The notes beneath the pieces are model-generated. The model was given only the letters and a program-made list of their open reading frames with translations. It was not told the DNA's origin and did not search any database. From assembly GCA_965178125.1 (NCBI GenBank), contig OZ237750.1, forward strand, positions 620,001 through 684,000: a stretch of DNA of 64,000 bases, given 5' to 3'. The position numbers were made by a program, and so were the translations under genes. The stretch is from Bilabrum cf. latius. Taxonomy: Eukaryota. Of the stretch, positions 810 to 56,600 are shown in pieces (within the stretch, counting starts at the first letter, position 1; every line of letters begins with the position of its first letter).

Positions 810-928
810 TTTCCTCGGTAGTCTGCGATCCAATTTTCGAAGATGTTTAGTCCACGGAGCGAATGTTCGCCAAAGTTCGCCAGGCGAGCCCAGTTCGCTG
901 ATTTCAGATTGCCGCCCAGGTAGCAAGC

Positions 929-3373
929 ATGGCCTCCGTAGCGAAGGCCTCGGCGAGCTTGCTGTCGCTGGCTAAGCGTGATCTACTCTCTGTCGCCCCA
1001 ATGATGGCCTGGACGACCCGTGCTTACCGCTACTTTGTCAGAAGCTGTACGTCGAGAACGAAGTTGTACACCGAGATGTATGTGGCAGACACGATTCACT
1101 ATGCAAATGACAGGCAACTTCGCGAGCTGATGGAGTTTGAAGAAATCCAGAGGCCGCTAGCCCTGCAGCTGGGTGGCTCAGACCCGGACCGCATGCGCCA
1201 GGCGATGCGCCGGGTATTGCCGTTCGAGTACGACGAGTACAATTTGAATTGCGGGTGTCCAAGCGACAAAGTAGCCGGGAAAGGCTGCTTTGGAGCAGCG
1301 CTCATGCTTCGCCCGGAGCTAGTCCGAGATGTGGTGGGGGTCATGGTGGAGGAGGCCCGGAAATGGTCGAACGACGAGGGGAAGCCAATGCCAGAAATCA
1401 CTGTCAAGTGCAGACTCGGCGCAGACGACATGGACACGTACGCCGAATTTCGCAACTTCATCGCGGTGGTCGCAGAGACGGGGGTACGTCACTTCATAGT
1501 GCACGCTCGGAAGTGCTGGCTCAAAGGCCTCGACCCCAAGGCCAACAGGAACGTGCCCCCACTGCGGTACTCTTGGGTGCAGCGCGCCGCGCTGGACTTT
1601 CCCGGGCTGCGAATATCTGTCAATGGAGGAGTGAAGAGCCTCAGGGAGACGGATTTGTTCCTCGGACTGCGCCCTTGCCCTGGCTCCCAGGTGGGGTGCA
1701 CCGACAGAAGCGAGGGCGCTGCCAGCAGTGCCAGTGCCAGTGGGGACGGGACGAGCGAAGGCAAGCGGAGGGATGAGACAACAAGTGCCGGAGCGACGGG
1801 GGCCGGGTCATCGCTGGATCTCTCCATCAAGCCCAGGACGGCAGCAGAAGAGGCAGCCATGGCCATGCTCACCTCCCAGGACTCGGCTGGTGGCACGAGC
1901 GGCACCACGGCGAGGAAGCTCACCAAGCGAGGCGTGCAGGTGAGCAAGGACGGGCTTGGTCCCGATGCAGGCAGCAGGTGGCGTGTAAGGGACGATATTC
2001 AGAGGCTGCACGACGCCCGCGCCGAGTGGAAATCGGCTGACGTCGCCAGACGGCGCGCCGTACACGAAATCCGCGCCAAGGAGGCCGAGGCATGCAGGGC
2101 ACGGGGGGAAGAGCCGCCGTGCCCGCAGGAGCAGGCGGCCAAGGAAGCCAGTGATACCGGCCCCCCGCGTGCCAGTGACCCGTCGTTGCCACCGCCAAGA
2201 CTGCAACCCGGGGAGGCCCCTCTCACGGTTCCCGAGCCTGTCCCCGTGGAGGGCGAGGTGCCTCTGTGGTTCGACCGAGAGCGCGCGGAGGTCTCCAGCG
2301 AGTCGGCATTCTCGGCTGAATCTGCTACCGCTGGATCGGGGGCAGACGGTAGCGCAGGAGGTGCCCTGATCGACAGCGTGATGATCGGCAGGCAGGCATA
2401 CTACAGCCTGTGGATGCTGGCCGATGCTGACAGGAGGTACTGGGGGGCCAAGAACCGGGGCCTTTCTCGACGGGAGGCCGTCCTTTGGTACGCCCGCACC
2501 TACATCGTGGCGCGGCTGCAGAGGGCTGCCGCAGACCGCCACGGCATGGATTTTGAGACTGCATTTCGCCGGGAGGAGGAGGACGCCGTGCTTGAGGCCG
2601 CGCAGGAGGAGGGCTACAGAATACACAAGAAGGCGACTGGAACGGACGACAGTGGCGGTGACGGCGGCGAGGCTGATATCAAGGAGGTCGACAAGGCAGC
2701 AGCGGGTGCAGCCGACGCACCCGATAGCAAAGAGGCCGGCATAGCGGCGGATCCAGGGGACGGCAGGGAGGGAGCGGCTCGCCGCCCCAAAGGGAAGAAA
2801 ACAGCGGCAGAGAAGAAGTGGCTTCGGCGGTACGGCAACAACAAGGTAGGGTGCGACTGCCACGGGCTGCTGAGTCCGATCAACTGCATCATGTTTGGGG
2901 TATATGGCGCCAGCAGGTTCAAGAAGAGGCTGCAGGCCATGGCGATGGCATGGAAGGACTTGGACTACAGGCGCGTGCTGGCGTGGCTGCCGGCCGATGC
3001 GGGTGCCCCGCTCGCTACTGGGGCGAGTTCCGAAGCTGTCGCTGGTGGCGATGCTGCGGGAGCTGGCACAGCTTTCGATTTCAGCAGGGAGGACTTTCCC
3101 GAGTTCGACCCGGTCAAGGAACTCGCCAGGGAGCTGGACGCGATGCTGCCCTACTAGCTGGACGAGAAACCCCCTTCGTCGCACGAAGACCTGCCGCCAT
3201 TGGGCTGGGAGGGTGACCCGCCCCGGATTACCATGGAAATGAAAGCTGCGATTGCGGCGAGAAGGGAGGTGAGGCTGGCGGCAGAAGCGCGTGCCAAGGC
3301 GGCTGAAGAAGGCCATGCTGGCTCATGTGTTGCCGCTGGTAGGAGTGGTGCGGCGGAGCCTCGTATCGGTTGA
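929..3373 (+). CDS. dusA: tRNA-dihydrouridine synthase, DusA-like, with large low-complexity insertions
   Basis: Motifs SVAPMM, LYTEM, LQLGGSDP, NLNCGCPS, GCFGAALM, TVKCRLG, FIVHARK, NRNVPPLRY, NGGV, VMIGR. Reads through TAG at 3155 to TGA at 3371. Confidence 0.9.
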
Positions 3374-19433: not shown

Positions 19434-20006
19434 TCATCCTCGGAAGCCGCCACCTCCAACTTTTGTCTTCGGCGGCCTGTAAACCTAAAAGCTACCCTCG
19501 TTCGGCTTTGCGTGCGTGAAGTATGCCAGGGCTTCATGCAGGCCATTCTCGGAGCGAGACCCTGGAAAGGGTCCTTCGATCGATCCGGCACTAAACATGG
19601 ACTAGATTCCGGTCTTCGCCTCCCGTTTCACTTCGTGCTGCATAGTTACAGCAGCTTGCTTTTCAAACAGGTGACTCTCCTCTTCCAAGATCTCCTTGAC
19701 CGGTACTTTTGCTGGAGCAACTGTTGGAGCTGATCCATCTGCCGCTTCACGATTCATGGTGGCTCGCATGCCGTCAATTTTTTCCAATGGAACTGCTTCA
19801 ATAGCATCTTTCAGTAGATCCGCGTGCTTTTGCTCGTGTCTGCTCTCAATGCACCGCTTTTGCATCTCGTCCGCAGATGCCACTTCCATCATCGTGCTTC
19901 TTGTTGTGGTTGTCTGGGGCACGCCACCAAACGGCTCCGTCTTCTGTTTTCGTACGCGTGTTGATCGCAACATTGCGCCTTCTGTAGAGCCCCAAGTGAC
20001 TTCCAT
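19434..20006 (-). CDS. Hypothetical protein, about 190 aa (start uncertain)
   Basis: The track ORF 19602-20036 extends through two TAGs to TGA at 19434, filling the gap between importin and PRP31. No recognisable motif. Confidence 0.5.
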
Positions 20007-20132
20007 CGCACAATAAGACCTTCTGGAGCTTCCCACTTGTGTCCGTTCAAGAGTAGGTTCCGCAGGTGGCCGCGGCGCGGCGCCTGCTGTGCATCTGCCA
20101 GGATTCAGAAATTGCCTCTACCGGAAAGGCAT

Positions 20133-21938
20133 ATGGCGGCTAGTGGAATTGACGATGACTTTCTGGATGATTTGGATGATCTTGGAGGTGATGAAGAGAT
20201 AGCTGTTCAGGATAGTCAAAACGTTCCTGCTTCCACAGGGGCACCAAATGAGGCAGCCAGTGTATCCGCCGATGGTGAGGGTTCTGGAGCCGCTGCAATG
20301 GAGCAGGAAGGCGGCGACTCCGAATCAGACGAAGATGATATATGGTTTTCAGGTTCCAAGCCTGCAAAGGCAGCATCGGCTCAGGAACGTGTCGTGCCGC
20401 CGTCACTTCCCAAAAGTAGCATCAGGGCATCCTCCCTTTCGGCAATCGATAGGTAGGCCGAGTCCGAGTCCGAGACGCTTCGTTCCGTTGATGCGATGCG
20501 ATCTGGGACAGGCAGAGCTGCTGGGAGCGCGACAGCTGTGGATGAGATGCCTCAAAGATTGCGCTCGATTGCGAGACTGCGAGCATCTGCCTCGTTCGCC
20601 GACCACATGGCTCGCGTGCGCGAGGCCACACTGCGCCCAGCGCCTAAAGCAATCGTAGGCGCGCTAGAGGCACAGCCGGAGTACAAGTTGCTGGTCGCTT
20701 CGAACGTGCTCGTGCAGCAAGTGGAGGAGGAGCAGGAGGCCGTGCACAAGCTGGTCGCAGACACGTACCAGGCGCACTTTCCGCAGCTGATCGATCTCGT
20801 TACGGACCCATTGATGTACTGTAAGGCGGCTCACATGATTCGAAATTCGAAGGATCTCACCAAGCTCGATTTGGAATCAGTCCTCCCCAGAAACGTGGCG
20901 ATGGGCGTGGTAGTGGCGGGCTCCTCCACGGCAGGTCGCGACCTCACAGAGGAGGAGCTTTCGCTGTGCGTGGCTGGCTGCGAGGAGGCGGAGCGGCTGG
21001 ACTAGGATCGCACCGCCATGCTTGATTTCGTGGAGAGCCGCATGTCCGTGCTGGCGCCCAACCTGTCGACCCTCCTCGGTACTGCGGCGGCTGCTAGGCT
21101 CGTGGGGCTGGCGGGGGGGCTGGCTCGGCTGAGCGAAGTGCCCGGCTGCAACATCCTTGTCATGGGCAAGCCCAAGCAGAGGATGCTGGGGATGTCCACG
21201 GTGGGCAGGGACCCCCACGTTGGGGTCATCGCGCAGTCCCCCCTGGTGTCGGAGGCCCCCAAGCACCTCCGGAGAAGGGCCGCCAAAGTGGCCGCCAGCC
21301 GCGCTGCCTTGGCGGCGCGGGTGGACTGCCACCGCACCCACCAGGACGGCCGCACGGGGGAGTCCTTCCGCGATTAGATCCTCGCTTAGATCGACAAGTG
21401 GGACGAGCCTCCCCCCAGCAAGTCCGTCAAGCCCCTTCCCCTCCCGGACCAGGTGAAGCGCAAGAAGCGGGGGGGGCAGCTAGCCAGGAAGAGGAAGGCC
21501 AAGTTCGGCCTGACGGACGTGCGTCAGCTGGCGGGGCGCACCACCTTCGGGACGACAGAGGGAGAGTACGGAGACGTGGCCATGGGCAGCACGCTGGGCA
21601 TGCTATCCCAGCGCAAAACGGCTGCTGGCAGCAGCTCCCGCATTGTGTCCAAGGCGCAGGAGCAGAAGAAGATGTTCGTGGGGTACAAGAGGGGCAAGCC
21701 GAAGGGGGGCAAGGCTGCAAGAGCAGCCGCATCATCGCAGTCCTCGTCATAGGCTTCCGGCCGAGCTGCTCCTCCCGGGACTGGAGCCTCCGTGCGAGGC
21801 GGGCTGGATACGTCCCTGGTGCTCACACCCATGGTGGGAGCCGGAGGGAAGGCCATCTCGGCGGCGGACCGAGTCCGCAAGGCGAACGAGAGGTACTTTG
21901 CGCAGGCTGGGACGTTCACGCAGGTAAGGAAGGATTGA
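20133..21938 (+). CDS. PRPF31: U4/U6 snRNP protein Prp31 (Nop domain)
   Basis: PEYKLLVASN, FVESRMSVLAPNLS, ALAARVD, DKWDEPPP..KPLPLP, RKKRGG, C-terminal ANERYF. Five in-frame TAGs (20454, 21003, 21375, 21387, 21750); TGA at 21936. Confidence 0.95.
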
Positions 21939-22015
21939 TGTGCTTGTGTTCGCGGGGCTTTGTCGATGCAACTGCCATTGGGACATGGAATGAATCTGAG
22001 GGATTGCACTTGTCT

Positions 22016-22127
22016 AGCAGTGCCCGCACAGCAAACTTCAACTGTCCAATGGTTGGACTCTACCTTTGTTCGGGAAGAGACGCCGGTTCAATTCCGGCTA
22101 CTTTACGGGCACAGCCATCTTCTTTTT
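22016..22127 (+). ncRNA. tRNA-like putative Pol III ncRNA, copy 1
   Basis: Terminal stem GTGCCCG(22020)/CGGGCAC(22106); D-like arm GTCC-AATGGTT-GGAC; T-arm GCCGG-TTCAATT-CCGGC (B box); T5 tract at 22123-22127. Confidence 0.65.
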
Positions 22128-22435
22128 GCGATCCAGCAGATCTTAGCCATGCCGCGTTACGAAATAGCCAAATGGCACATTAAAATCGCACATGCATATT
22201 ACATGCACCGAATGTGGTTGAGGATTCGGTACCGGGACCCAAAATCGAATCGCATGCACGGGTGGCAAAACCAGACATAGTCAAATCTCCAATCAAATTT
22301 AATACGCCTTGCCCAGGCACGCCTCGCGCACCAAAAAACAAGATAGATATACTTCTTATTTATGATCTTCGGGTTTTGGCTGCATATCGTAACACGGCAC
22401 TGGCTACCCTGGAAGTTGATGGATTCGACAAGCGG

Positions 22436-22566
22436 AGCAGTGCCCGCACAGCGATTTCATTCGTGAATTTGGTCCAATGGTTGGATTCTACCCGGTTAGG
22501 GAAGAGATGTCGGTTCGATTCCGACAATTTACACCCAAAAAATACGGGCACAGCTCACGTATTTTT
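22436..22566 (+). ncRNA. tRNA-like putative Pol III ncRNA, copy 2 (near-complete cloverleaf at 22463-22533)
   Basis: Same terminal stem (22440/22545). Acceptor-like stem GTGAATT/AATTTAC, A box TGGTCCAATGG, T-arm GTCGG-TTCGATT-CCGAC, non-canonical anticodon arm, T5 tract at 22562-22566. Confidence 0.7.
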
Positions 22567-22760
22567 CTCCGGATCGAGTCTGAGTCTACTTTTCCCGCAC
22601 TGACCCGGAGAAAAATACGACCAAGAACAGCACCAGTCTGCCGTCCCACCGCCCACTCAGCAACGATTGCATCTTCAAGTATCTACGTTGTTAGCAGTGA
22701 GCCAGCGTGCTGAGCATTGCGCCCTTGCTTTCAGCTGCAAACGCCTACGCGACCATGTGC

Positions 22761-23840
22761 TCATACTTCAGCGACGTAGGCGAAGGCCTCTCGTCGCAGC
22801 GCCAATGATGACGGGCTGTGACCAGCAGCACCGGCTCCAATAAGCCGAAGCAGCTTTTGCATGCCTCCCAACCTGCTCGGCGCTTTACCTCTGCAGGGAG
22901 ATCGCATGCTGCCCGTGCCTTCCGCTGGATCTTGCGCGTGGCCAGCGGGCTAGAGTGTCAGGAAATCTCGAATGACCTCGTCAGCGACCGAATCCGCGCT
23001 CTCCAGAGAGTCGAATCCGCTATAGATTGGTTCCTCCGACGACTCAAGTGTATCGCAGGGTGCAGCTGCTGCCTGTGGAATCCCGAGCGATGTCCAGCGC
23101 ACCCTACGGAAACCTGCTTTTCGCAAGAGCGGCTCTCTCAGGTCAGGGTGTTCGTCCGAATAATGGAGAAATTGGGATGATGCTGGTAGTTTCCCAAGGT
23201 TGCTTGGCTGTTTTACAGGCACCGCGCACGCCCGGTGGTGTGACATCAATGCTCGAACCGGACCGGCCCGAAGCATCGCAACTGCTGCTGGAACGCCACC
23301 TTCGGGTGGTTTACCAAGCACAACTGCATCTATACCGCATTTATCAACGATTACTAGCGGTTCACCCCGAAACTGTCCTTCGTGTTGATGTACATCGCGC
23401 ATCGATCCGACCTAGAACGAACTCGGTGCATGCTAAGCCCCACCCGAAGCCTTCGAGGCCACTTGGGCTGATTGAAACAAAGACTGTGCGCCCTTTACAG
23501 CCTCAGCGGAGGCATCGATATTAATCACCTGGCTCGTAGTTCTGAGCGATGCAATGGCAGGAGACAAGACGCTTGTCCCACATCCAATGTGTATCACAGC
23601 ACAGCCTTGGCTTCTCCCAGCAGTGTTCGGCGCAATTCCCCTCATTCCGTGTGTCAGTTTCTCCATAGCCCTGGCCATATGGCGCAGAATCGCCGCAGTT
23701 GAGTACGGAAGCCAGTCGTCATACTGGGCGTGTCGGCCGGCAAACCATGAGTCCCACGACTTCACATCGGCTAGGTTCTGCAGCATACCAGTAGTTAATG
23801 GAGGCTTGGAGGCCTGTGCTAGCCGGGTCACAGCCCGCAT
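22761..23840 (-). CDS. Class I SAM-dependent protein-lysine methyltransferase, CSKMT/METTL12-like
   Basis: LADVKSWD..DW, HIGCGTS (motif I), INIDAS, VIVDKCGIDAV, YSDEHPDLR. TAGs at 23433, 23412 and 22950; TGA at 22761. Confidence 0.72.
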
Positions 23841-24013
23841 CAGGGCAGCAATTCTGCCACAGGCAACGAAATCTCCATCTCCCTCGCAGCTCCGAGTTGG
23901 CCAATCGCCACCGGCCAATTGTCAAGTTGCCAGTTTTTTAGAGTTGTGACGAGCAGAGTGCTGAGTGCTTCTCGTGAAAGACAGCCGAATTCGCGCGAAT
24001 GCATCTGTTCAAG

Positions 24014-44639: not shown

Positions 44640-47600
44640 TCACTGTCCTCCGCTAAACGGAGCGAACGCGGCAGTCACCGCATCGTTCGCTCCCTCCTCC
44701 CCAGAATCATTGTCCTGCCCATCCTCCAACTCCTGCTCGAACTAAGCAGCCAGGGCATCCAGGGCCGCGGTGCTTCCGCGGGTCCCCGCAGTCGTGCCCT
44801 CCACGGAGGCGCGCCTCCCGCCGCGGCGGCCCGCCGCACCGTCCTGCTGCACAGACACATCGTCCACGTCCGCGCCGTCCACCTGCGCCGGGCTGCCGTG
44901 CCTTTGGGCAGACGAGGACACCCGCACCCGCTTGGGCTGCAGCGCGGTGCTGCCCTGCGAGCTGCGCCGCGAGCCGCCCTCGGCCGAGCCGACGCGATCC
45001 GCCATCCTGACCTCGTCGATCCCCGTGCCAGCGGCCAAGGACGGGTCCTCAACCCCGTCGTGCACCCCGCCCACATCCTCGTTGGAGGCGCTCCCGCTGG
45101 GCACGATCTTGGCGAGGTTGCTGGTCCCGTAGGCGCCTCCGGCTGGGCTGCCCACCAGCCCGGTGGCATCGTCCAGACTGCCCCCGGTCGGTGCGGCGGC
45201 ACCGGCAGTCACGCCATCGAATTCTTCACCGCCCTCCTTGCTGTCCTCCGGAGGGGTGCTGCGGCCCGCCTCTGCGCCCACGGTGGGCGAGTCCGAGGCC
45301 TCCGTCTCGTCCTCCAGACCCTCCTGCACCGCAACCACGACGAAGTACGCCGCCACGGCGATGAGACCAGCCACCACGAGGCCGCCCACTGCGATGCCGG
45401 CGATGGCACCGCCGGACAGGCCCGAGGGACCGTCATCGCCGCGACCGTCTCCGCCACCGCCGCCACCGTTGTTGTCGTCGTCAGCACCGGGGCCCGGGCT
45501 GGGCGAGGCGGCGGGCGCGCCGATCCACGGGGCAGGGAGTGCCCTCTGCACCGCGTTCACTCGCATCAGCTGCACGAACAGCACGCTTCCGTCCGAGCAG
45601 CCGGTGGCCGTCACGGTGCCGGTGGAGTGGTCGTAGGACCTCCAGGCCTCCTGCCCGTCGGTGCCCGCGCTGCCGCACGCGTCCGACCCGGTCGACCCGG
45701 CACCCGCCACCGCCAGCGCGGCGTACTCGTAGGAAGAGTTCAGCCTGGCGGCCATGGTCGTTGGCAGCCTCACCGACACGCTCGACGTGCGCCCAGACGT
45801 CCTGCTGCCCACCGTCACCGCCACGGGCAGGCAGTCCACCACCTCGTCCGCGCTGCCGCTCGTCTCGGGCTTGCCAGAGGCCACTCGGGCCGCCGAGGCA
45901 GAGGCGCACGCGGACGACGCCACGCCGCTCTGGCCCGCCGACACGCGCACGCCCGACGCGCGCCAGCCAGCCGCGGGCCTGGTCACCTGCACGCGGAACG
46001 GATCCGCAGACGACTGCGCGCGCCTCACCAGCAGCAGCGCCCTGGCGGCTCCACCGGCGGCGGCTGCGGGCCCCGCCAGCTCCTCCTGCTGCTCCGCGGT
46101 GGCGCCGTACGTGGCCTCCCTGGTGACCGACAGGAGATCCTCGTCACCCGCAGAGTCTAGGCCCTCGGGGTCGGGGACCACCACGTCGCTGCACGTGGCG
46201 CCCTCGTAGCCGTCGTCGCACACGCACTGCGCCTCGCCCGACGTGGACTGCACCAGCGAGCTGGCTCCCGCAGACTCGGCCGTCTGCGACACGGCCTCGG
46301 CGCAGATGGTGCCGTGCCAGTTGCACGCCGCCCGGCAGTGCGTGGAGCAGTCCGGCCCGCCCCATCCGTGCACGCACCTGCACTGCAGCGCCTCGGCGAA
46401 GGCGGCCCTGTCCGTGGCGGCCACCTGCCCCGTCGCGGTGGAGCCGCTGCCGTCGCCGCCCGGCCCGGCGGCCGCCACAGCGCCCTCGCTCACGTCGGCT
46501 GAGCCCGCGAGCCACTCGTTCACGAAGCCGCTCACGGCCTCTGGCAGCGCGCCCATCTCGGCCTGCGTGGCAAGCACGGCTCCTGGGTTCTGGCCCGTGC
46601 CCGGCAGGAAGGGCTCCGGCCTCCAGGCCATGGACTTGCCGTCCGACGTGCGCTGCAGTACGCTCGAGGGCAGCCCGTGCACGCACGTGAACTGGTCGCA
46701 GCGCTCGCCCGCCCAGAACGGATCGCACTCGCACGCCACCTCGCCGTCCTCCCCGGTCACCTGCACGCCAAAGTAGCACGCGTCGCTGCCGCGGCCCACG
46801 TACGTCCCGCAGTCCTCGCCGGTCCAGCCCTCCTCGCACGCGCACTCGAAGCTCTCCACCCCGGTGAGCACGCCGTCGTTCTCGGGGTCCACCAGCACCG
46901 TGGTGGTGGTTGCCTCGCCATGGAAGCACCGGATCGGCTCCGGGAAGGGCGTGCTGCAGTCGGCCCCGCTCCAGCCCGGCATGCAGCTGCACATCTCGCC
47001 CACCACCGTGCCGAACACGCAGGGCACCCGCACGTCGCACGACTGCCCGTCGGAGCCGCCCCACCCGGCGGCGCACTTGCAGATCACCGAGCCGTCCTGC
47101 CTCGTGCCCTCCACGTACGCGTTCTCGCCGCACACGCTCTCCTCGCACCTGTCACCGGTCCAGCGCAGGGGATCGAAGCAGTCGCACTTGCTGCTGTCCT
47201 GCGCGTTGCACATCCCGCGGCCGTGGCAGTAGTCCCTGCACAGGTGCTCGCACCGGGGCCCGCGGCGCCACGTCGGGTCCGTGCACACGCACTGCCCGTC
47301 CACGATGCTCCCGTGAAGGCCGCAGTCGGGCAGCGAGGGCGAGCCGAAGCGGCCCAGCACCGCCTCGGGCCCGCTCTCCGCCATGAGCCGAAGCAGAGAC
47401 GCGGTCTCTGCAGGCACGCCGTCCTTCCCTGCCATCTCCAGCAGGTACTCCTCGTAGGACTCGTAGCCATCGGGCAGGCCGGCCCCGCCCTCGGGCAGCG
47501 GCGGCAGCTCCACGCCCTCCTGCAGCATGCGCTGGCGCCAGCCCTCGTGCCCGCCGGCCTCCGCGGCCTCCTGCCTCAGGCGCCTCGAGCCGGAGGGCAG

Positions 47601-50600
47601 CCCAGAGATGGACTGGGCCGCGGCCGCGCACTGCGCCAGCGACCGCAGGCTGGCCTCCGCGTCGTCCTCGAACTGGGACGGCAGCAGCCCGGTGTCGGCG
47701 CCGCTCGCGGACCCGTCTGCAAGGAAGCTCTCGGTGATGCCCATCGACACCACGTTGGCCGCGTTGACCATGGCCAGCAGCGAAGGGTCGGCGCCAGCCG
47801 CGAACATCGGGTGGTTGATCTGACCGCGGCCCTCGAAGCTCCTGACGATCAGCTGCCCGTCGATCTCACCGGTGGGGAACACCGTGTCGGCGCGAGGCGC
47901 CAGCAGGGTTCCCTTGATGCCCACGCGCACGATGTCCATCGTGTCGGCGAACGGCGCGTTGATGACCAGGCGAGAGGCCACGTCGTTGTTCTAAAAGTCG
48001 CCCGTGAAGCCCAGGGGGCCGATGTCCACGTGCCGCGCCGGCTGGGGCTGGCCCCCCTGCACGGCCGAGCTGCTGCTCCCGCCGCTTCCGCCGGTGGTGC
48101 CGTTGAATGCAAGCAGCGTGAACAGGTCGCCGTTGCCCTCGCCGATGCCGGTCCACGCGGTCTCGTACAGCACGTTGATCACCGTCACAGGCACGCCCGA
48201 GCGGGCGGGCAGCCCCTCGTTCTGAGCCGCCTGCACGCCGGCCGCCATGCCGGTGAGCTCGAGCCTCACCTCTGCGGCGGACTCCAGGAGGTCGGCGCTG
48301 ACGTGGAACACGTTGATGTCGGAACGAGTGCCGCGCAACACCAGGGTCGACCACTGCAGGTCGGTGGTGCCGGTACGGGGCAGCCGAGCCAGGCTCATGC
48401 TCAGCCAGCGAGCGCCCAGCGAGGCGCCGAAGAAGTCCACCGGCATCGGATGCCCGGCCGCCGTGTCGTCCTCGAGGCTCTGCCAAACGCCCGGCTGGTT
48501 CACGCTCGCACGGGGATAGCCGACCATGCTGTTGTCTCCGCGGCCGAAGAAGGCGTTTCCGCCGGACAGCACCGCGCCCGACGTGAAGTTGAGCCGCCCG
48601 CCCACGGCCAGGTCGGCCCTTCGGCTGAACCTCGTGCTGTTCTGCAGGATGCCGTCGGCCTCGTCCCAGGCCAGGGCCCACGACTCGGGGAAGATGCCGT
48701 CGGGGGGCAGGCTGTACCCCCCAGGCAGCCGCATGGCCTCGTGCTCGTACCGCTCGTGCGGCGGCGTGAACCAGATCTCGCCCACAGAGTACAGCGACAG
48801 CGTCACGTCACCAGCGGCGGCCATCAGGCCCTCCACGTCGCTAGACGGAGCCTCCCAGTCCCCAAGTGCCACGGCCATGTACTGGCTCAGAGCGGGGTGC
48901 AGCATCTGAGGCGGCTGCGGGCGCATCGCCTCGCCTGCGCTCGGGTGGAAGCTCGCCTGCGGGCTTGGCGCGGGCGAGGACGACGGCGACGGGCCGGCAG
49001 AAGGGGCCGCGTTGGCCGCGGCCAGCTCCACCAGGCGCTGGTACTCGTCGATCGCAACGTCGCAGAGCGCCCCCGCGAACCCCATCGGGCACACGCACGT
49101 GCCGCCCGCCGTGCACACGCCGCCGTTCATGCAGCCGGACCCGCGGGCCGCAGAGGCGCCTCCGTCCCAGGCAGCCGCGAAATCGAACGCGCCTTCGCTG
49201 AACGCCGCATCCGGGACGCATCGCACCAGGGTATACTCCGCGTGCTCCCCGGCCGCGCCACCCATGTGCACCGTCGAGTTGCCGTAGTACTGCACCGGGC
49301 TCGCGTCACGGTTGGGCCCGATGTTGAGGTCCAGGCTGCCGCTGTCCAGCTCGGCCTGGATGCGAACCGCATTCGAGTCGTCCTCGGACCCAGTCTCCGC
49401 GATGGCGTCCTGCACGTCGCCTTCGTCGCGCAGTCCCACCGCCAGCGTGAAGCGCCGGAGAGGTGCCGTCAGAGCAAACAGCGAGACGGAGGGAGAGGGG
49501 TCCTCGGCCAAGTCGCCGTACGCGCCGCCGTACAGGATGTCGTCCATGTCTGCTGGCACAGGGCACACGAGCCTAAACTCGCTGGTGACCGTGGCGGTCT
49601 CGCTGGCCAGCACCACCTCGGGCATGTCCCGATCCAGGAAGATGCACACGGGGCGCCCGTTCGCAGAGCAGCCCAAGTTGCCGCCGAACACGGAAATAGC
49701 ACCCCCGGCAAACACGGCGCCGCCCGCTGGCCTGAAGCCGGTGACCGTCGTGTTGAAGTCCTCGCACTGCTGCACCGAGCAGTCGTCTCCCGAGAAGCCC
49801 AGATCGCACACGCACCCGCCGCACGTGCAGGTGCCTTGGCCCGTGCACAGACTGGGGCAGAATTGCACCTGGTTCAAGCCCGTCACCTGGCACGAAGGGC
49901 TTGGCGAGACACTCGGGGTCGGCGTAGCTGACGTTGTTGGCGATGTTGACGGTGTGAAGCTGGGCGTGGGGCTGTTGCTTGGGCTGCTGCTGACGCTGGC
50001 ACTGGGGGTCACTGAAGCAGTCGTTGACGAGGTCGGTGTGGCCGATGCCGTGCTGGTGGTCGATGGCGTCGGGGTCGACGAAGCCGTGCTAGTGGTCGAT
50101 GGCGTCGGAGTCGAAGAAGCCGTGCTAGTGGTCGATGGCGTCGGAGTCGAAGAAGCCGTGCTGGTGGTCGATGGAGACGGCGTCGCTGATGCCGTGCTGG
50201 TGGTCGATGGCGTGGGAGTCGACGAAGCCGTGCTGGTGGTCGATGGCGTGGGAGTCGACGAAGCCGTGCTGGTGGTCGATGCCGTCGGAGTCGCTGAGGT
50301 TGTACTAGTGCTCGATGGCGTGGGAGTCGACGAAGCCGTGCTGGTGGTCGATGCCGTCGGAGTCGCTGAGGTTGTACTAGTGCTCGATGGCGTGGGAGTC
50401 GACGAAGCCGTGCTAGTAGTCGATGCCGTCGGAGTCGCCGAAGCCGTGCTGGTGGTAGATGGCGATGGCGTAGCGCTGACCGACGTTGATCCGGACGGAG
50501 ACGTCGATGGCGTTGCCGAAGTAGTGCTTGTCGTGCTCGGGGTTGGACTTTGAGTAGGTGACGGAGTCGTTGACGGTGTGAAGCTGGGCGTAGGGCTGTT

Positions 50601-53600
50601 GCTCGGGCTGGCCGTCACGCTGGCACTGGGGGTCACTGAAGCAGTCGTTGACGAGGTCGGTGTGGCCGATGCCGTGCTGGTGGTCGATGGCGTCGGGGTC
50701 GACGAAGCCGTGCTGGTGGTCGATGGCGTCGGAGTCGACGAAGCTGTACTAGTGGTCGATGGCGTCGGAGTCGACGAAGCCGTGCTGGTGGTCGATGGAG
50801 ACGGCGTCGCCGAGGCTGTACTAGTGGTCGATGGCGTCGGAGTTGACGAAGCCGTGCTGGTGGTCGATGGCGTGGGAGTCGACGAAGCCGTGCTGGTGGT
50901 CGATGGCGTCGGAGTCGACGAAGCCGTGCTAGTGGTCGATGGCGTCGGAGTCGAAGAAGCCGTGCTAGTGGTCGACGGCGTCGGAGTCGAAGAAGCCGTG
51001 CTGGTGGTCGATGGAGACGGCGTCGCTGATGCCGTGCTAGTGGTCGATGGTGTGGGAGTCGACGAAGCCGTGCTGGTGGTCGATGCCGTCGGAGTCGCTG
51101 AGGTTGTACTAGTGCTCGATGGCGTGGGAGTCGACGAAGCCGTGCTGGTGGTCGATGCCGTCGGAGTCGCTGAGGTTGTACTAGTGCTCGATGGCGTGGG
51201 AGTCGACGAAGCCGTGCTAGTAGTCGATGCCGTCGGAGTCGCCGAAGCCGTGCTGGTGGTAGATGGCGATGGCGTAGCGCTGACCGACGTTGATCCGGAC
51301 GGAGACGTCGATGGCGTTGCCGAAGTAGTGCTTGTCGTGCTCGGGGTTGGACTTTGAGTAGGTGACGGAGTCGTTGACGGTGTGAAGCTGGGCGTAGGGC
51401 TGTTGCTCGGGCTGGCCGTCACGCTGGCACTGGGGGTCACTGAAGCAGTCGTTGACGAGGTCGGTGTGGCCGATGCCGTGCTGGTGGTCGATGGCGTCGG
51501 GGTCGACGAAGCCGTGCTAGTGGTCGATGGCGTCGGAGTCGAAGAAGCCGTGCTAGTGGTCGATGGCGTCGGAGTCGAAGAGGCTGTACTCGTCGTGCTT
51601 GGTGAGACGCTAGGAGTCACACTAGGCGAGACACTTGGCGTGGAACTGCTGCTTGGTGTCGCACTACTCGTCGTCGAGGGCGAAACGCTGGGCGTGACAC
51701 TGGGAGTCACACTAGGCGAGACACTTGGCGTTCCACTGGTGCTCGGGCTGCTGCTGACGCTTGCCGTTGGGCTTGCAGTAATGGAGCTAGTCACCGATGG
51801 CGTGGGGCTGTTGCTTGCGCTGGGTACGATTGGAACCTGGGACGGGGTCGTGCTGGCAGAGCTGCTCGCCCCGGGCGTTCCGCTGGCAGAGGGCGTGCTG
51901 GATGACGACGGCACGAGCACTCCCGGCGATGGCGAGCTGGAGGGCGACGGCGTCGGCGTGGGCGGCGTGTTGGGCTGCAGGGCCTCGATGCACTCCTGCA
52001 GGTATAGATGGTAGGCCGTCAGCCCCAGCTGCGTATCGCCCGACACGCAGGCATCGAACAGGCACGCCTCGTAGTACGTCTGTCCATCCACTCCCAGCGC
52101 GTTGCAAATCTGAGCGTACGTGCCGTTGATGAAGGCATCCGCGCATATGTCCTCCACCTGCTCCTGCAGCTCCTCCGTCGCGCACTCGCCAGGCTCTACG
52201 TCGGGATCCGTCTGGTTGTTCGGCGGCGGCGGGCCGAGGCCGCCCCCTCCGTCATCGTCCCCGCCGTTGTTGTTGTCATCGTCGTCATCGTCCACGTCAT
52301 CCGTGATGTCGTCCGAGTCGTCGCCGGGCCTGAGCGGGTCCACGGGAGGAGGCACCGAGGCAAAGCACTGCAGCACATCCGTGGAGCCGAGCTCGCCACC
52401 GGAGCCGCCCCCGCACGACCCGACCGGCACGATGGCAGGGTTGCTCGTCGGGGGGATCGTGGCGCCGGAGCCAAGCGTCATCAGCTGCTCGCTGGGAGGC
52501 ACGATCCACGAGTCTCCAAAGCCGCGGCGACCCTGGCGGTTGCCCCTGTCGTACGTCACACCGTCCCAGCCGAGGAAATCGTTCGAGGCGTCGCCGTCCA
52601 GCGAGCCGCACATACCACCGACCTTACCGGCCCACACGGCGCCCAGGTCGATGTCGACGTTCATGTAGTAGAGCCCCCGCCAGGAGCTGACCTCTACCTG
52701 CACGTACGAGCCGTCTGGCAGGGTCACCCGGTACTTTGGCTTGCCGAGCGAGCTGCCGACCTGGTGCACGGACACGTGGTTCAGCCCATTCGACAGCACC
52801 ACCAGGGGGTGCGGCGAGTTCCTGTTGGCCACGGTGAAGGCCATGATGTCGCCACGGTACTGCACCGCGATGGCGTCGTTGCAAGACACAGTGAAGCACT
52901 GCTTCTGCCTGGCCTGCACGCTGAATTCGCCGTCGCAGCTGCGAGCCAGGTAGAAATCCCCCGTGCCAAAGTAGTCGTACTTGGAGCCGGTCCAAGAGAT
53001 GATGTGCGGGTCGCCCCACGACCTGCAGCGCCCGCCGGAGCCGGAGTGGGTCAGCTGCAGCTGCACGTCGTCGCGCACCACGCCCTCCGCAGAGACCTGC
53101 GGCGGCTCCCCGGCTCCGTCCTCGGTGATGGCCAGGCCGGTCTGGGGGTCGATCACGATGGAGCCGTTCGCGAGCGTGGACACGCCGACACCGGGCTCGT
53201 ACGAAAGGGTCTGCGAGTAGTTGAACGCGCGCAGCAGCACCGGGAAGTTCTGCTGGCCGCTCGTGTACTGGGAGCGGCGCGGCGTCACGGTCACGTTCTG
53301 CCAGACGTTCCAGTTGGTCAGGTTAAAGTACAGCACGCAGGTGCTCAGCCCAAAGGCAGAGTCGGCCAGGGAGGAGTCGAGCTCCACCCAGATGTTGCCG
53401 CTGTGCCGAGGAGGTGTGGTCAGGCGCACCTAGAAGGTGCTCGTCTCGTCCGCGCTCACCAAGACGGGGCTAGGGCTGATGTCCAGGCCGGGCCCGCACT
53501 CCTCGGTCTCGAGCAGGGGCGGGCAGCCCACGCTGCCCGACAGGATCGTCCTCGACCGCGACCTCACGGCGGAGAGGCCGCACTGAGGGGTGCCCTGGGC

Positions 53601-56600
53601 CGCCCCGCCGCAGCTGGCCGCCGACCCACCGGACATCGGGGAACAAGGGGTCCAGTCGGACCAGTCGCTCACCACGCAGTCGTTCACGGAGCCGTCCCCG
53701 AACCAGTACCGGTGGTTGTACTCGGACCACAGGAGCCTCGCTTCCTGGCGGTCGAGCGGGCGATCGTACAGCCTCACGTCGTGCAGCTGCCCGCAGAAGC
53801 GGTCCCTGCCCTCGCCGGTCGACGAGGTCTGCGACGAGCCGATCAACAAGGCCTTGGGAAGGGCCGCCAGCGCGCCCGGGCCGCTCACGCTCACCTCGGC
53901 ACCGTCCACGAAGAAGGTGGCCACGTCGCGGAACCCATCGTACGTGATCACGGCCGTGTGCCAGTCACCCAGCGGAGCGTTCGCGATGAAGCCCTGCGGG
54001 CTCGCGCCCCCGTTCAGGTTGAGCAGCGCAGCCACGCTGGAGCCGTCCTGGTTGTCGGGCGACCGCACCTCCCAGCTGGCGGAGGTCCTGGGCCCGTTGC
54101 CGAACAGGTACTGCGAACCGGACGCCAGGCGCCTGCGGTAGAACAGAGCCGCGGTGAAGCCCCTGGGGTCGTTCTCAGTGCCGCTTGCCTGCCCCGTGGG
54201 GTTCTCCCAGGCGTATCCGGCGAGCCCGGGCACCTCAAGGTGCGCGTCCCAGCAGGAACCCATCACGGCCATGCGGCGGGAGGCGGACGCGGCGCCGCCG
54301 ATGGCGGCGTTGCCGAAGGGGAAGTCGGACGAGGAGCCGTCCGCGCGCAGGGTGGCGTCGTTGCCCGCGCCCGACCGGTCAGACACGGTCACCACGGGCG
54401 GGGGGTTGGGCTCCTGCTGCGTGGGCGTCACGGGCGTGACCACGGCCTGGGACGTACCAAACGTCAGCCACAGCGAGGCCGGCAGCGTCGGCAGCGAGCT
54501 GGAGGACTCCGCCGACGTGCCAGGCTGCGCGGGTCTCTGGAAGTCCGCGTCGGCCTCGATGAACACGGGCCTGACGGCGCCCAGGATGGCGCCGTGGGCC
54601 CCCTGCGGACCAATGTCCTCGATCCCCACCACGTCGTCCGAAAAGATCTCGAGGCCCTCAATCAGCACGTCATCGCTCGTGTCGCCGCGCAGGTAAGCGG
54701 CCACCGAGGGGCTCAAGTTCAGGTCCGCCTCCGCGGCGGTGATGCCGCCGCCCACAAGGCCAGTCACCAGCCCGCTCTCGCCGCCGGTGAGCGTGTCCGA
54801 GTCGCTGCCGAACAGGAGGGCCCTGGCGCCGGTGCCGTCCTTGGCCTCGCTCCACACGGTCAGGCCGCCCACGTACCCCTCGAGGGAGAGCTGGGGCAGC
54901 AGGCCGGTGCCGCACTCGTACGAAGCCGCCAGCCCGTCGCGAAGAGCGCCCGAGGACGCGATCTGGCCGAGCATGAGGCATCCCTGGGAGGAGAAGGAGG
55001 GCCCCGCCAGCTGGGCGCGGGCGCCCTCATCGTCGGCCGTTGCGGCTGCATCGCCCTGCAGCGCAGGGCCGGGCCCGTCGTAGACGTCCCTGCCATCCAC
55101 CCACACGCGCAGGTTGCGGCTGCTAGAGGACGTGGCCCACGCCACGGCGATGTGGTGCCACGAGCCGTCCCTGATCTGCACGCCCGTGGCCAGCGTGCTG
55201 CCGAAGAGGAGCACCTGCAGCTTGCCAGCGGCGTCCATGAGGCACACCAGCTCGTTGCCGCCGCTGCCCTCCGTGATCGAGGCGCCGCCGCTCCCATAGC
55301 CGGCGTAGCTCAGCAGCGCCGCGCCGGCGTCGTCGTCATCGTTGGTCCTAACAAAGAACGACACGGTGGAGTCCGAGGTAGGGTAGGCGAGCCCGGGGAA
55401 CTCCGTGGCGTTGTAGTCCACCTGCACGCGCGCGCCCAGTCCGGGTGCGTGCAGGAACACCTTGTCCCTCCTCTCTGAGGTGCGGAAGACGTACCGCTGG
55501 TCCACGAACCGGCGCGTGGTGGGAGCGCCCGCGGGAGCTTGCCCGCCCCCCGCCACGTACTTGAGGTGGAACTCGAGGGTGGCCTGGGCCTCGCCCCCGT
55601 GCTCGTAGAACTCCATCTCGATCGTGTGCAGACCGCGGGACAGCACGACGTCGCCCGTGTTTGTCTTGTACGCCCTGGGCCCGTCGTGCCCCGTCACGAG
55701 AGCTCCGTCGATCCAGACAAGGCCGCCGTCGTCAGAGCCCATCCTGAACTCGTAAGTGCCCGCCGTATCGATCTTGAGCAGGCCGTGCCACCGCACGTAA
55801 AAGTCGCTGTCGGGGATGCCCTGGTACGGCCCTCCCCACACGTTGTTCCTCCGGGCGGCGATGTTGATCTCGTCCACCACCCCGGTGACGCGGGTGCCCA
55901 GGTCGAGCTTGTCGGGGCGCAGCTCGTCGAACGTGCGCTTGCGCTCGGTGATCTCGTACCCCTCAAAGGCCCAGCCGGGCTCGAGGCCGCCGGTGTCCAC
56001 GGGTGCCTGCGTGGAGCCGCCGGTGCCCGTGCCCGTCCCGGTCGGGTTGTGGAACAGGTGGGCCGGGCTGCCGGATCCCACCTTGCGCCATTGCTGCGTG
56101 GATTTGAAACAAAGGTAAGCAACTTATGAAAGTAGCATGTCCATAGGCAGTGTCTGAATCCAGGCCAGCCGTTCCATGGCGTCGGGGCGGCGCAAGATTC
56201 GATTGTCGTCTCTCACGTTGAAAGGGCCGGGGCCGTCCGTGCTCTTGAACTCAAGCGTGAGCCCAGCGGTTCCACCGTTCTGGAAATGGTCCACCTGCGC
56301 GGTACGGATATGAGGAGGAACATCAAATACTCGCGGTTCTCATGCTCGCACGCACGCGACGAACAGCCGCTGCGAAGTGTGGGTTGCAAGCAGAGAGGCC
56401 ATCGGATGCTGCTCGCGCACTCGCTTCCAAACACTCACGCGGATGTTATGAAGGCCCTGGCTCAGCTAAATGTGCTGGCTCGTCTTGTGGGAGAAGGAGT
56501 GCCCCCCATCATGGTTGATTGCCTGCGGTAGCAACAAGAATCAAGCAGAAACTCAAATGATCAAGCCTCAGCCGAGCATCACAGGCACGCACGGAAATAA

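Follow-up and report, generated by a model that had tools for sequence, protein, structure and literature searches.

Two tRNA-like units lie in the same orientation, on the plus strand, in the 0.8 kb that separate two convergent genes, PRP31 and a methyltransferase, of the protist Bilabrum cf. latius. In the window, by which we mean the whole 64-kb stretch of DNA that was analyzed, the end of PRP31 is at 21938 and that of the methyltransferase frame at 22761; between them, copy 1 of the unit occupies 22016-22127 and copy 2 occupies 22436-22566, each comprising two arms, a tRNA-like core and a T5 tract. A preliminary description of this DNA had named the two neighbors and had placed two elements 420 bp apart between them, with shared blocks, differing loops and a common mismatch; the naming of the neighbors was borne out, the genes are convergent, and all of the features described were found in place. 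When two 470-bp halves of the region were compared to each other, similarity was confined to the units, which indicates that the duplication is old.

Within the units, conservation is distributed block by block. The 5' arm, AGCAGTGCCCGCACAGC, occurs at exactly two places in the 64 kb when up to three mismatches are allowed (22016 and 22436), both of them exact; the 3' arm, TACGGGCACAGC, also has two occurrences (22104 and 22543), and the core string GTCCAATGGTTGGAYTCTACC has two in the window, with a match in 0 of 100 shuffles. The pattern GTGCCCG-N60-90-CGGGCAC gave one match, to copy 1, against an expectation of 0.01, with the spacing in copy 2 being 98 and hence outside the range of the pattern. 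Between copy 1 and copy 2, identity is complete in the 5' arm (17/17), the 3' arm (12/12), the T5 tract (5/5) and both strands of the anticodon stem (5/5 and 5/5), and it is 14/15 in the D arm, 3/4 in the variable region and 14/17 in the T arm. Among the unconstrained blocks, the 5' spacer matches at 3/10 positions and the tail from arm to T5 at 2/7, and the acceptor and 3' spacer regions are gapped. The arms are thus identical at 29/29 positions compared to approximately 48% (22/46) in four non-structural blocks (the 24-nt upstream block, counted by eye, the 5' spacer, the 3' strand of the acceptor and the tail), and at that rate the chance of 29/29 would be about 5e-10. Similarity also extends approximately 24 nt upstream of the 5' arm and amounts to 76% over 41 nt including the arm. 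This upstream block lies on the plus strand at 21992..22015 in copy 1 (GAAnnTGAnGGATTnnAC) and at 22412..22435 in copy 2, and it is a candidate start-site or promoter element; its motif is exact only at 21992 and 22412, for a pattern that was itself derived from both sites. Given that conserved blocks alternate with scrambled spacers, selection, and not recent duplication, is indicated, which supports the earlier claim of selection on the family. Judged from the two sequences, the units look conserved by selection.

The core of copy 1 (22043..22098, plus strand) has D, anticodon-like and T arms. Its D arm is closed by GUCC/GGAC, its T arm reads GCCGG-UUCAAUU-CCGGC, its variable region is 4 nt long, and its anticodon-like stem (CUACC/GGAAG) contains an A-A mismatch and carries an 8-nt loop, UUUGUUCG, with a C after GUU. 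It lacks an acceptor stem and U8, yet all of the other blocks are kept. The core of copy 2 (22463..22535, plus strand) forms a complete cloverleaf, which ARAGORN called as tRNA-Asn(GUU) and which matched the Rfam tRNA model RF00005 over its full length (model positions 1-71) at 45.4 bits, compared to a gathering cutoff of 29; this was the only Rfam entry over the 64 kb. The acceptor stem of copy 2 (GUGAAUU/AAUUUAC) is A/U-rich, contiguous with the T stem and paired at 7/7 positions, including one G-U, and the core also has U8, A14, the D-loop GG, a 4-nt variable region, the T arm GUCGG-UUCGAUU-CCGAC, A37 and A73. Its anticodon loop, CGGUUAG, has GUU at positions 34-36 preceded by G33 and not U33, and C32 and G38 are pairable. 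The middle pair of the anticodon stem is an A-A mismatch in both copies, such that neither has a regular 5-bp stem. The loops (TTTGTTCG versus CGGTTAG), the shared mismatch and the restriction of the acceptor stem to copy 2 were all confirmed as first described. Copy 1 went uncalled by ARAGORN under default settings, and relaxing the thresholds (80% and 60%), permitting introns or switching to mitochondrial mode produced no credible call for it, the folds returned being of low quality and either unrelated or overlapping; an 801-nt scan likewise gave no match of copy 1 to any Rfam family at E values up to 10. The preliminary description could assign the elements to no known class, which stands for copy 1 and fails for copy 2. 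It had also regarded a hit to a standard tRNA as evidence against its reading, and this half counts against it, with copy 2 above the threshold and copy 1 not.

On this basis, copy 2 could be an unusual but functional tRNA-Asn(GUU) gene and copy 1 its decaying pseudogene, with the arms and upstream block being extragenic DNA elements and not part of an RNA (for example, promoter or terminator-proximal motifs of the organism's tRNA genes). Copy 2 resembles a canonical tRNA-Asn in its full cloverleaf, 7-bp acceptor, D-loop GG, canonical UUCGAUU T loop and GUU at 34-36, and U8, A14, A37, the ARAGORN call and the full-length Rfam match speak for the same explanation, although the score of 45.4 bits is modest. 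The loss of the acceptor stem and U8 from copy 1, together with its 8-nt loop, is in keeping with decay. However, a pseudogene would not keep its arms at 29/29, its D arm at 14/15 and its anticodon stem at 10/10 against spacers at 2/7 and 3/10. Furthermore, neither the G33 that replaces the near-universal U33 nor the A-A mismatch kept in both copies is a decoder feature, and copy 2 has A73 where tRNA-Asn normally has G73. We consider this explanation rather unlikely. The combination of G33, the A-A mismatch, the pairable C32-G38 and A73 makes it plausible that copy 2 is non-decoding, as had been proposed for the pair.

In the nuclear genes of the host, TAG is a sense codon, and TAA and TGA are kept as stops; what look like breaks in PRP31 are in-frame TAG codons and not introns. 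PMC5304391 documents such a code, in which UAG alone is reassigned, for only two lineages. A role of the units in UAG decoding was considered. No CUA or UUA anticodon supported by pairing was found in any loop register or on the minus strand, and CUA occurs in the units only within the 5' strand of the anticodon stem (UCUACC); a simple role in UAG decoding was therefore rejected.

The preliminary description had further claimed that a conserved outer helix, GTGCCCG/CGGGCAC, encloses two paralogous tRNA-like elements, and the exactness of the arms and their pairing agree with this. In copy 1, the 5' arm (22016..22032, plus strand) contributes the clamp strand GUGCCCG at 22020-22026 and the 3' arm (22104..22115, plus strand) contributes CGGGCAC at 22106-22112, with A22113 in the discriminator position opposite A22019, followed by the pairs C22018-G22114 and G22017-C22115. 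In copy 2, the 5' arm (22436..22452, plus strand) has GUGCCCG at 22440-22446, the 3' arm (22543..22554, plus strand) has CGGGCAC at 22545-22551, and A22552 stands opposite A22439. The core of the clamp has exactly 7 bp, beyond which come the A-A mismatch and two further pairs, a geometry that, on paper, matches an acceptor stem plus discriminator. Canonical tRNA genes need no outer helix, whereas both copies carry a conserved one. The arms form a 10/12 inverted repeat, and copy 2 is listed with a 12-nt arm that is 92% complementary. Standard pairs were found in 51/51 scorable base-pair cells across both copies, with no stem position disrupted; one pair is changed on both sides (C-G to U-A in the T stem), and one is changed on one side (G-C to G-U in the D stem). 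The compensatory change that had been pointed out in the T stem is therefore real, and the changes in the stems keep pairing. When the 3' partners were slid by 1 to 3 columns, only 33-45% of the cells paired, a control that is lenient because the structure was derived from the same two sequences, and a pairing shuffle of the two-row alignment was uninformative (250/500). Covariation comes down to a single pair, given that there are two sequences and that the arms never vary. The G-U pairs of copy 2, in the D stem and the acceptor stem, fit the plus strand only. The clamp is present in the minimum-energy fold of each copy (-37.1 and -40.0 kcal/mol), with z values of -2.89 and -2.50, and 2 of 200 shuffles folded as well for each copy.

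Being invariant, the arms could equally be DNA motifs, as the explanation by an ordinary tRNA gene would have it. The 5' arm is itself near-palindromic (GCAGTGC-CC-GCACAGC), as binding sites of dimeric proteins often are, and the arms lie far upstream of the A box. A half-site model nevertheless leaves the complementarity between CGGG in the 3' arm and CCCG in the 5' arm unexplained. If ordinary tRNA genes carry the same arms genome-wide, our finding shrinks to a lineage-specific feature of tRNA-gene flanks.

The signals expected of a type-2 Pol III gene, namely, an A box, a B box and an oligo-T tract, had been claimed for both elements, and an A-box-like motif, a B box and a T5 tract are indeed present in the type-2 order. 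The B-box consensus is matched by GGTTCGATTCC and GGTTCAATTCC, exactly in copy 2 and with an allowed R57 change in copy 1, and TGGTCCAATGG is A-box-like, agreeing at 9/11 positions with the consensus. The T5 tracts (22123..22127 in copy 1 and 22562..22566 in copy 2, both on the plus strand) each begin 7 nt after the 3' arm, and that of copy 2 is also part of the 5' arm of an 18-nt inverted repeat (22558-22575/22602-22619). The distance from the 5' arm to the position of the A box is 27 nt in copy 1 and 34 nt in copy 2. The usual leaders of tRNAs made from type-2 promoters are shorter than this, and at such a distance, if the A box alone determined the start, the RNA would not include the 5' arm.

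Four sequencing runs were compared, of which X5 is DNA-like and X7, X8 and X9 are RNA-like; none is recorded as RNA. The RNA-like signs in X7 are a GT..AG spliced joint and the lack of coverage of both the intron and the spacer between the copies. In this run, a 151-nt contig covers copy 2 (22422-22572) as an isolated island at a depth of 2.3, and it overshoots the unit by 14 nt beyond the 5' arm and by 6 nt past the T5 tract. Another X7 contig contains the PRP31 coding region, extends across copy 1 and ends at 22112, where the clamp strand has its final base. The PRP31 mRNA contig of X8 stops at 22001, before copy 1. A spliced plus-strand RNA begins 20-40 nt after copy 2. The X7 contigs, from one of the three RNA-like runs, cannot show RNA ends, strand or polymerase, and neither copy is covered by a contig of X8 or X9, an absence that is uninformative. 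All of the contigs match the window exactly and so reveal no sequence variation.

These contigs raise the question of whether the units act in cis on neighboring Pol II transcripts, either as 3'-end processing signals of PRP31 in the manner of MALAT1/mascRNA or as TFIIIC/Pol III roadblocks that separate convergent transcription. The position of the units between convergent genes, the passage of the X7 PRP31 contig through copy 1 and the start of a spliced RNA just after copy 2 would all fit this explanation. MascRNA is also alike in having a tRNA-like fold at the end of a Pol II transcript, and the leader-trailer helix of MALAT1 is reported to aid processing of the tRNA-like 3' element (PMC8457004); the corresponding point here is the inclusion of copy 1 in a PRP31 RNA contig. 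However, the ends of contigs are not the ends of RNAs, and the X8 contig stops short of copy 1. Copy 1, the unit within the mRNA contig, lacks the acceptor stem needed by RNase P, and, unlike mascRNA, there are two copies here, each with its own T5 tract. A roadblock would need only the B box and not a conserved anticodon stem or complementary arms. We regard action in cis as distinctly unlikely.

A covariance model of the unit, run with filters off over the 64-kb window, recovered only the two copies (160.8 and 134.6 bits), with the next-best match at 10.1 bits, and thus no third copy in the window. In a metagenome scan, the 19-nt core gave 14 loci, in coding or unrelated contexts and including some duplicates, and none (0/14) had the rest of the element. 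Among viral contigs, the core and the T-arm block each had 0 matches, whereas the 16-nt 5' arm had 26 loci, about the number estimated by chance; none of these (0/26) had CGGGCAC within 160 nt downstream, and two of them had GGTTC. No relatives were found in the metagenome and viral collections searched. The arm and core strings retrieved from published full text only papers that are unrelated by title, and our search of the literature on closing-stem tRNA-like Pol III RNAs and leader-trailer pairing returned no description of such a design.

These searches also bear on an origin as relics of mobile elements, that is, a tRNA-derived SINE or a MITE with the arms as its terminal inverted repeats. 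SINEs typically carry heads derived from tRNAs that contain A and B boxes, and the arms do form a 10/12 inverted repeat. Moreover, repeats do occur at this locus: a 16-nt inverted repeat flanks the spacer that separates the copies, and 22149-22195, within that spacer, aligns with 4 mismatches to a different RNA contig of high coverage. Against such an origin, no direct repeat of at least 5 nt that could represent a target-site duplication was found at the arm or T5 boundaries of either copy, the units end in an arm plus T5 and have no A-rich or LINE-like tail, and conservation runs past the supposed terminal repeats into the upstream block of about 24 nt. Two copies 420 bp apart in one orientation, with no third in the window, are a better fit to local duplication. 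We judge a mobile-element origin to be very improbable.

We favor the reading that the pair are paralogous, tRNA-derived, non-decoding RNA genes, probably transcribed by Pol III, and we would put its probability at roughly 45%. Under this reading, each unit would run in the order of upstream block, 5' arm, free spacer, tRNA-like core, free spacer, 3' arm, 7 nt and T5, and the core would consist of the D arm (A-box-like), a 5-bp anticodon-like stem with its fixed A-A, a 4-nt variable region and the T arm (B box). The A and B boxes inside the gene would recruit RNA polymerase III, the upstream block would position the start, and termination in the T5 tract would give a predicted product of approximately 110-130 nt. 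The arms would then clamp the ends of the RNA through the 7-bp G/C-rich helix, the A-A mismatch and the two outer pairs, thereby imitating an acceptor stem whose discriminator is unpaired and whose leader and trailer are paired. The L-shaped elbow of a tRNA may be kept by two conserved elements, the GG of the D loop and the UUCRAUU of the T loop. Given that the loop at the anticodon position is free of the rules that bind a decoder, we propose that the RNA would be a tRNA mimic and not a decoder, and it could serve as a scaffold or decoy for a tRNA-binding protein. The inner 7-bp acceptor stem is kept in copy 2, which could therefore be cut by RNase P and RNase Z to yield a tRNA-like product of 72 nt.

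Several known systems share parts of this design. Bacterial YrlA RNAs, in the description of them in PMC4201824, place a tRNA-like module on a closing stem and have a 7-bp acceptor cut by RNase P in some members only; the same source gives Yrn1 an anticodon-like loop of non-standard length and describes metazoan Y RNAs as having no apparent tRNA-like module. The likeness lies in an RNA of approximately 100-130 nt (a predicted size here), in D and T arms carried on a stem formed by the ends and in an acceptor present in some members; the difference is that YrlA belongs to bacteria, whereas the host here is a eukaryote. Vault RNAs are approximately 90-140 nt long and are alike in having tRNA-like A and B boxes, a T-run terminator and pairing 5' and 3' ends, as Pol III-type genes; they have the two boxes only, whereas the units here have full D, anticodon-like and T arms. 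The Rfam Vault family gave no match at E values up to 10, a weak negative given that the model is built mainly from animal sequences. No Y RNA family in Rfam matched at E values up to 10 either, and within the tRNA clan only tRNA itself was kept as a match. The bacterial Y RNA motif GNCGAAN0-1G, as given in PMC4201824, was absent from both strands of both units. In trypanosomatids, degenerate tRNA-like sequences are reported to act as promoter elements beside snRNA genes, where the A and B boxes, and not decoding, account for their retention (PMC4950102). Conservation here, in contrast, reaches stems and arms that would be superfluous to a promoter, and Rfam detected no small-RNA gene beside either unit over the 64 kb. 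Permuted or bulge-helix-bulge (BHB)-disrupted tRNA genes of red and green algae, as described in PMC3978253, combine leader-trailer pairing with an upstream promoter-like element and a downstream T-stretch, as do the units here. A permuted or BHB-disrupted tRNA was rejected for this pair, in which the D, anticodon and T arms are in the normal order and the clamp is a 7-bp helix with a single 1x1 mismatch and not a 3-4-3 bulge-helix-bulge.

Collectively, tRNA-shaped molecules that do not decode are already known from bacteria (YrlA), from long non-coding RNAs of animals (mascRNA) and from the heads of SINEs. A conserved, free-standing eukaryotic pair of genes with a full tRNA body inside a pseudo-acceptor clamp could be matched to none of the described classes that we compared. 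The two paralogues appear to capture different stages, the inner acceptor stem being present in one and absent from the other, and if they are expressed as a discrete RNA, they would offer a small, tractable case of the passage from a tRNA gene to a structural RNA. Given how rare the TAG code of this host is, its whole repertoire of tRNAs and tRNA-like RNAs deserves a look. In a more far-reaching version of our reading, which we hold to be improbable, the pair would represent an undescribed eukaryotic family of clamp-closed tRNA mimics that act as the RNA subunit of an RNP, with a Ro60/Y-like, a vault-like or another tRNA-binding protein as partner. The L-shaped body would here be freed from decoding and held by the outer pseudo-acceptor helix; RNase P and RNase Z could still cleave one paralogue, and the other would be locked. 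If true, the bacterial YrlA design would gain its first eukaryotic counterpart, found in an orphan protist lineage that has likewise turned UAG into a sense codon.

The two tRNA-like units, copy 1 (22016-22127) and copy 2 (22436-22566), lie on the + strand within 21992-22580, with the starts of their 5' arms separated by 420 bp. Both follow the order of upstream block, 5' arm, spacer, core, second spacer, 3' arm, seven bases and T5. In a pairwise alignment of the two copies, the 5' arm (17/17 nt), the 3' arm (12/12 nt) and both anticodon-stem strands (5/5 and 5/5) were identical, followed by the D arm (14/15) and the T arm (14/17). The 5' spacer was unalignable (3/10), the seven-base tail before T5 was unconserved (2/7), and copy 2 contains 8 and 12 extra bases absent from copy 1. 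The upstream block common to both (21992-22015 and 22412-22435, + strand) was 76% identical over 41 nt including the arm, with 14/24 counted by eye for the block itself. A 21-nt core was found twice, compared to 0/100 shuffles, and blastn comparison of two 470-bp halves revealed no colinear similarity outside the conserved blocks. Identity was ~48% (22/46) over the pooled unconstrained positions (24-nt upstream block, 5' spacer, acceptor 3' strand and tail), and at this background the chance probability of 29/29 identical arm positions is near 5e-10. By this comparison the duplication is old; the conserved blocks are not explained by recency and have been maintained by selection or some equivalent constraint.

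The arms are predicted to pair with each other in an outer clamp, originally described as a GTGCCCG/CGGGCAC helix, and RNAfold included this clamp in the minimum-energy folds of both copies. Fold energies were -37.1 kcal/mol (z = -2.9) for copy 1 and -40.0 kcal/mol (z = -2.5) for copy 2, and 2/200 shuffles folded equally well for each copy. The inner part of the clamp consists of exactly seven Watson-Crick pairs (GUGCCCG/CGGGCAC). Beyond these 7 bp, an A lies opposite an A (22019/22113 and 22439/22552), followed by two further pairs; in its geometry the clamp would thus resemble an acceptor stem whose discriminator is left unpaired and whose leader and trailer pair over a short stretch. An alternative hairpin, GCAGUG-CCCG-CACAGC, can be read within the 5' arm alone and would precede the clamp during transcription. 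We scored the clamp, the copy 2 acceptor stem, the D stem, the anticodon stem minus its A-A mismatch and the T stem, and standard pairs occupied 51/51 scorable cells, a count that is consistency and not proof given that the structure was read from the same two sequences and two rows have almost no statistical power. Just 33-45% of cells paired in a control with partners shifted by 1-3 columns. One D-stem pair was altered from G-C to G-U, and one T-stem pair was altered on both sides from C-G to U-A, which confirms the compensatory change proposed earlier. The G-U pairs are compatible with the + strand only.

The preliminary description considered the units not assignable to a known class, which held for copy 1 and was not supported as stated for copy 2. 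ARAGORN called the copy 2 core (22463-22535) as tRNA-Asn(GUU), the sole tRNA in the 64 kb, and the Rfam tRNA model matched it over its full length at 45.4 bits (gathering score, 29). Copy 2 has U8, A14, GG in the D loop, a canonical T loop and A37. It has G at position 33, where U is nearly universal in tRNAs; C32 and G38 are able to pair; the anticodon stem is interrupted at its central pair by an A-A mismatch; and its discriminator is A73, the tRNA-Asn discriminator being G73. Copy 1 has an 8-nt loop and lacks both U8 and an acceptor stem, the latter being confined to copy 2 as first reported. It matched no Rfam family at E up to 10, and ARAGORN found no credible fold even with lowered thresholds. 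Apart from the copy 2 tRNA match, neither unit matched Y RNA, vault or other Rfam families (E up to 10). One explanation is that copy 2 is an odd but working tRNA-Asn gene, copy 1 a pseudogene and the flanking motifs DNA-level elements. We consider this unlikely, given that copy 1 keeps all the other blocks as well as copy 2 does, which is unlike pseudogene decay. Both copies retain the A-A mismatch, as had been noted. The tRNA elbow, the anticodon-like stem and both arms are under constraint, and the loop, acceptor stem and spacers are not. This pattern fits the reading that we tentatively prefer, at a probability of about 45%: that the units are an RNA keeping the tRNA shape without decoding, its ends held by the outer helix.

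A B box within each unit, an A-box-like motif and the T5 tract suggest transcription by Pol III. The 5' arm is 27-34 nt upstream of the A box, so that it would fall to the conserved upstream block to set the transcription start. PRP31 (19965-21938) is a single 657-aa frame, with TAG read as sense and TGA as its stop, that contains a complete Nop domain and a contiguous Prp31_C domain. The methyltransferase frame on the minus strand (22761-23921) ends at 22761, which places both units between two convergent genes. No listed sequencing run was recorded as RNA, and RNA nature was judged from behavior. A contig of run X7 has a GT..AG joint from 22696 to 22897, and both this intron and the spacer 22196-22421 lacked coverage, so that this run behaves as RNA. 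One X7 contig reads out of the PRP31 coding region, across copy 1 and as far as 22112, where the 7-bp clamp strand ends, and a separate 151-nt contig (depth, 2.3) spans 22422-22572, comprising copy 2 with 14 nt upstream and 6 nt past T5. Two other runs, X8 and X9, had no contig over either copy, and the X8 PRP31 contig ends at 22001. Both units are therefore present in RNA-derived assemblies of one run, whose contigs are uninformative on ends, strand and amounts and do not demonstrate a discrete Pol III product. That the units act in cis on the neighboring transcripts, as processing or roadblock elements, is quite unlikely in our estimation.

Several other features were observed around the units. 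The spliced X7 contig joins 22608-22696 to 22897-23100+, skipping 22697-22896, and its GT..AG lies on the + strand, which makes it antisense to the methyltransferase frame over that frame's 3' part. Unspliced contigs over the 22608-23100+ stretch were present in X8 and X9, and + strand frames in the spliced stretch were not coding-like. An 18-nt inverted repeat (22558-22575/22602-22619; 94% complementary; 26-nt loop) begins in the copy 2 tail and includes the T5 tract of that copy. The downstream RNA contigs start within the 3' arm of this repeat, and its matches to a miRNA precursor family were weak and chance-level. A 16-nt inverted repeat (22150-22165/22384-22399; 88% complementary) flanks the inter-copy spacer on both sides, and the left end of the spacer (22149-22195) matches another X7 contig (2396 nt; depth, 321) with 4 mismatches. 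This spacer may be a repeat or insertion, and the units would be almost adjacent if it were removed.

An origin of the units as mobile-element relics is very unlikely, given that they lack target-site duplications and that conservation extends outside the arms. A covariance model search, one of the checks proposed at the outset, found no third copy in the 64-kb window. No homologue of the core was found among 14 metagenome loci matched, and three scans of viral contigs gave 0, 0 and 26 matches, the 26 being chance-level and none having a partner arm. The HMG-CoA synthase in the window is 53% identical to its closest named homologue and 82% identical to one metagenome protein; the host protist has been poorly sampled.

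In this nuclear genome, TAG is a sense codon, and TAA and TGA are stops. In-frame TAGs number 55 across fourteen long frames, of which 10 terminate in TGA and 4 in TAA, and reading TAA or TGA as sense did not extend the real genes. The TAG at 21750-21752 lies inside both the Prp31_C domain and a colinear RNA contig. In the best solved homologues, TAG is opposite A, E and K for PRP31, G and A for the GH3 enzyme, and E and L for importin-5. It is plausible that TAG encodes glutamine, with which these alignments are compatible without demonstrating it. UAG as sense with UAA and UGA as stops is a rare code, reported from just two lineages in one paper (PMC5304391). No pairing register in copy 1 or copy 2 supports a CUA or UUA anticodon, and thus we saw no direct link between the tRNA-like units and the reassignment. 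With TAG read through, three abutting open reading frames at 44640-56123 (- strand) merge into one 3827-aa frame with VWD, EGF/teneurin-like, laminin-G-like and PA14 domains, whose product resembles a giant adhesin-like surface protein. The window also contains a dihydrouridine synthase (Dus) gene (902-3373, + strand), whose product is an enzyme that modifies the D loop of tRNAs.

To our knowledge, the nearest design to these units is the bacterial YrlA Y RNA. YrlA carries a tRNA-like module on a closing stem, and a 7-bp acceptor stem, cut by RNase P, occurs in some members only (PMC4201824). The bacterial Y-RNA motif GNCGAAN0-1G was absent from our units, in keeping with the preliminary description, which had found no canonical Ro60-binding helix, and membership in the family thus fails. 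The likeness to YrlA lies in the way in which the tRNA-like units may function.
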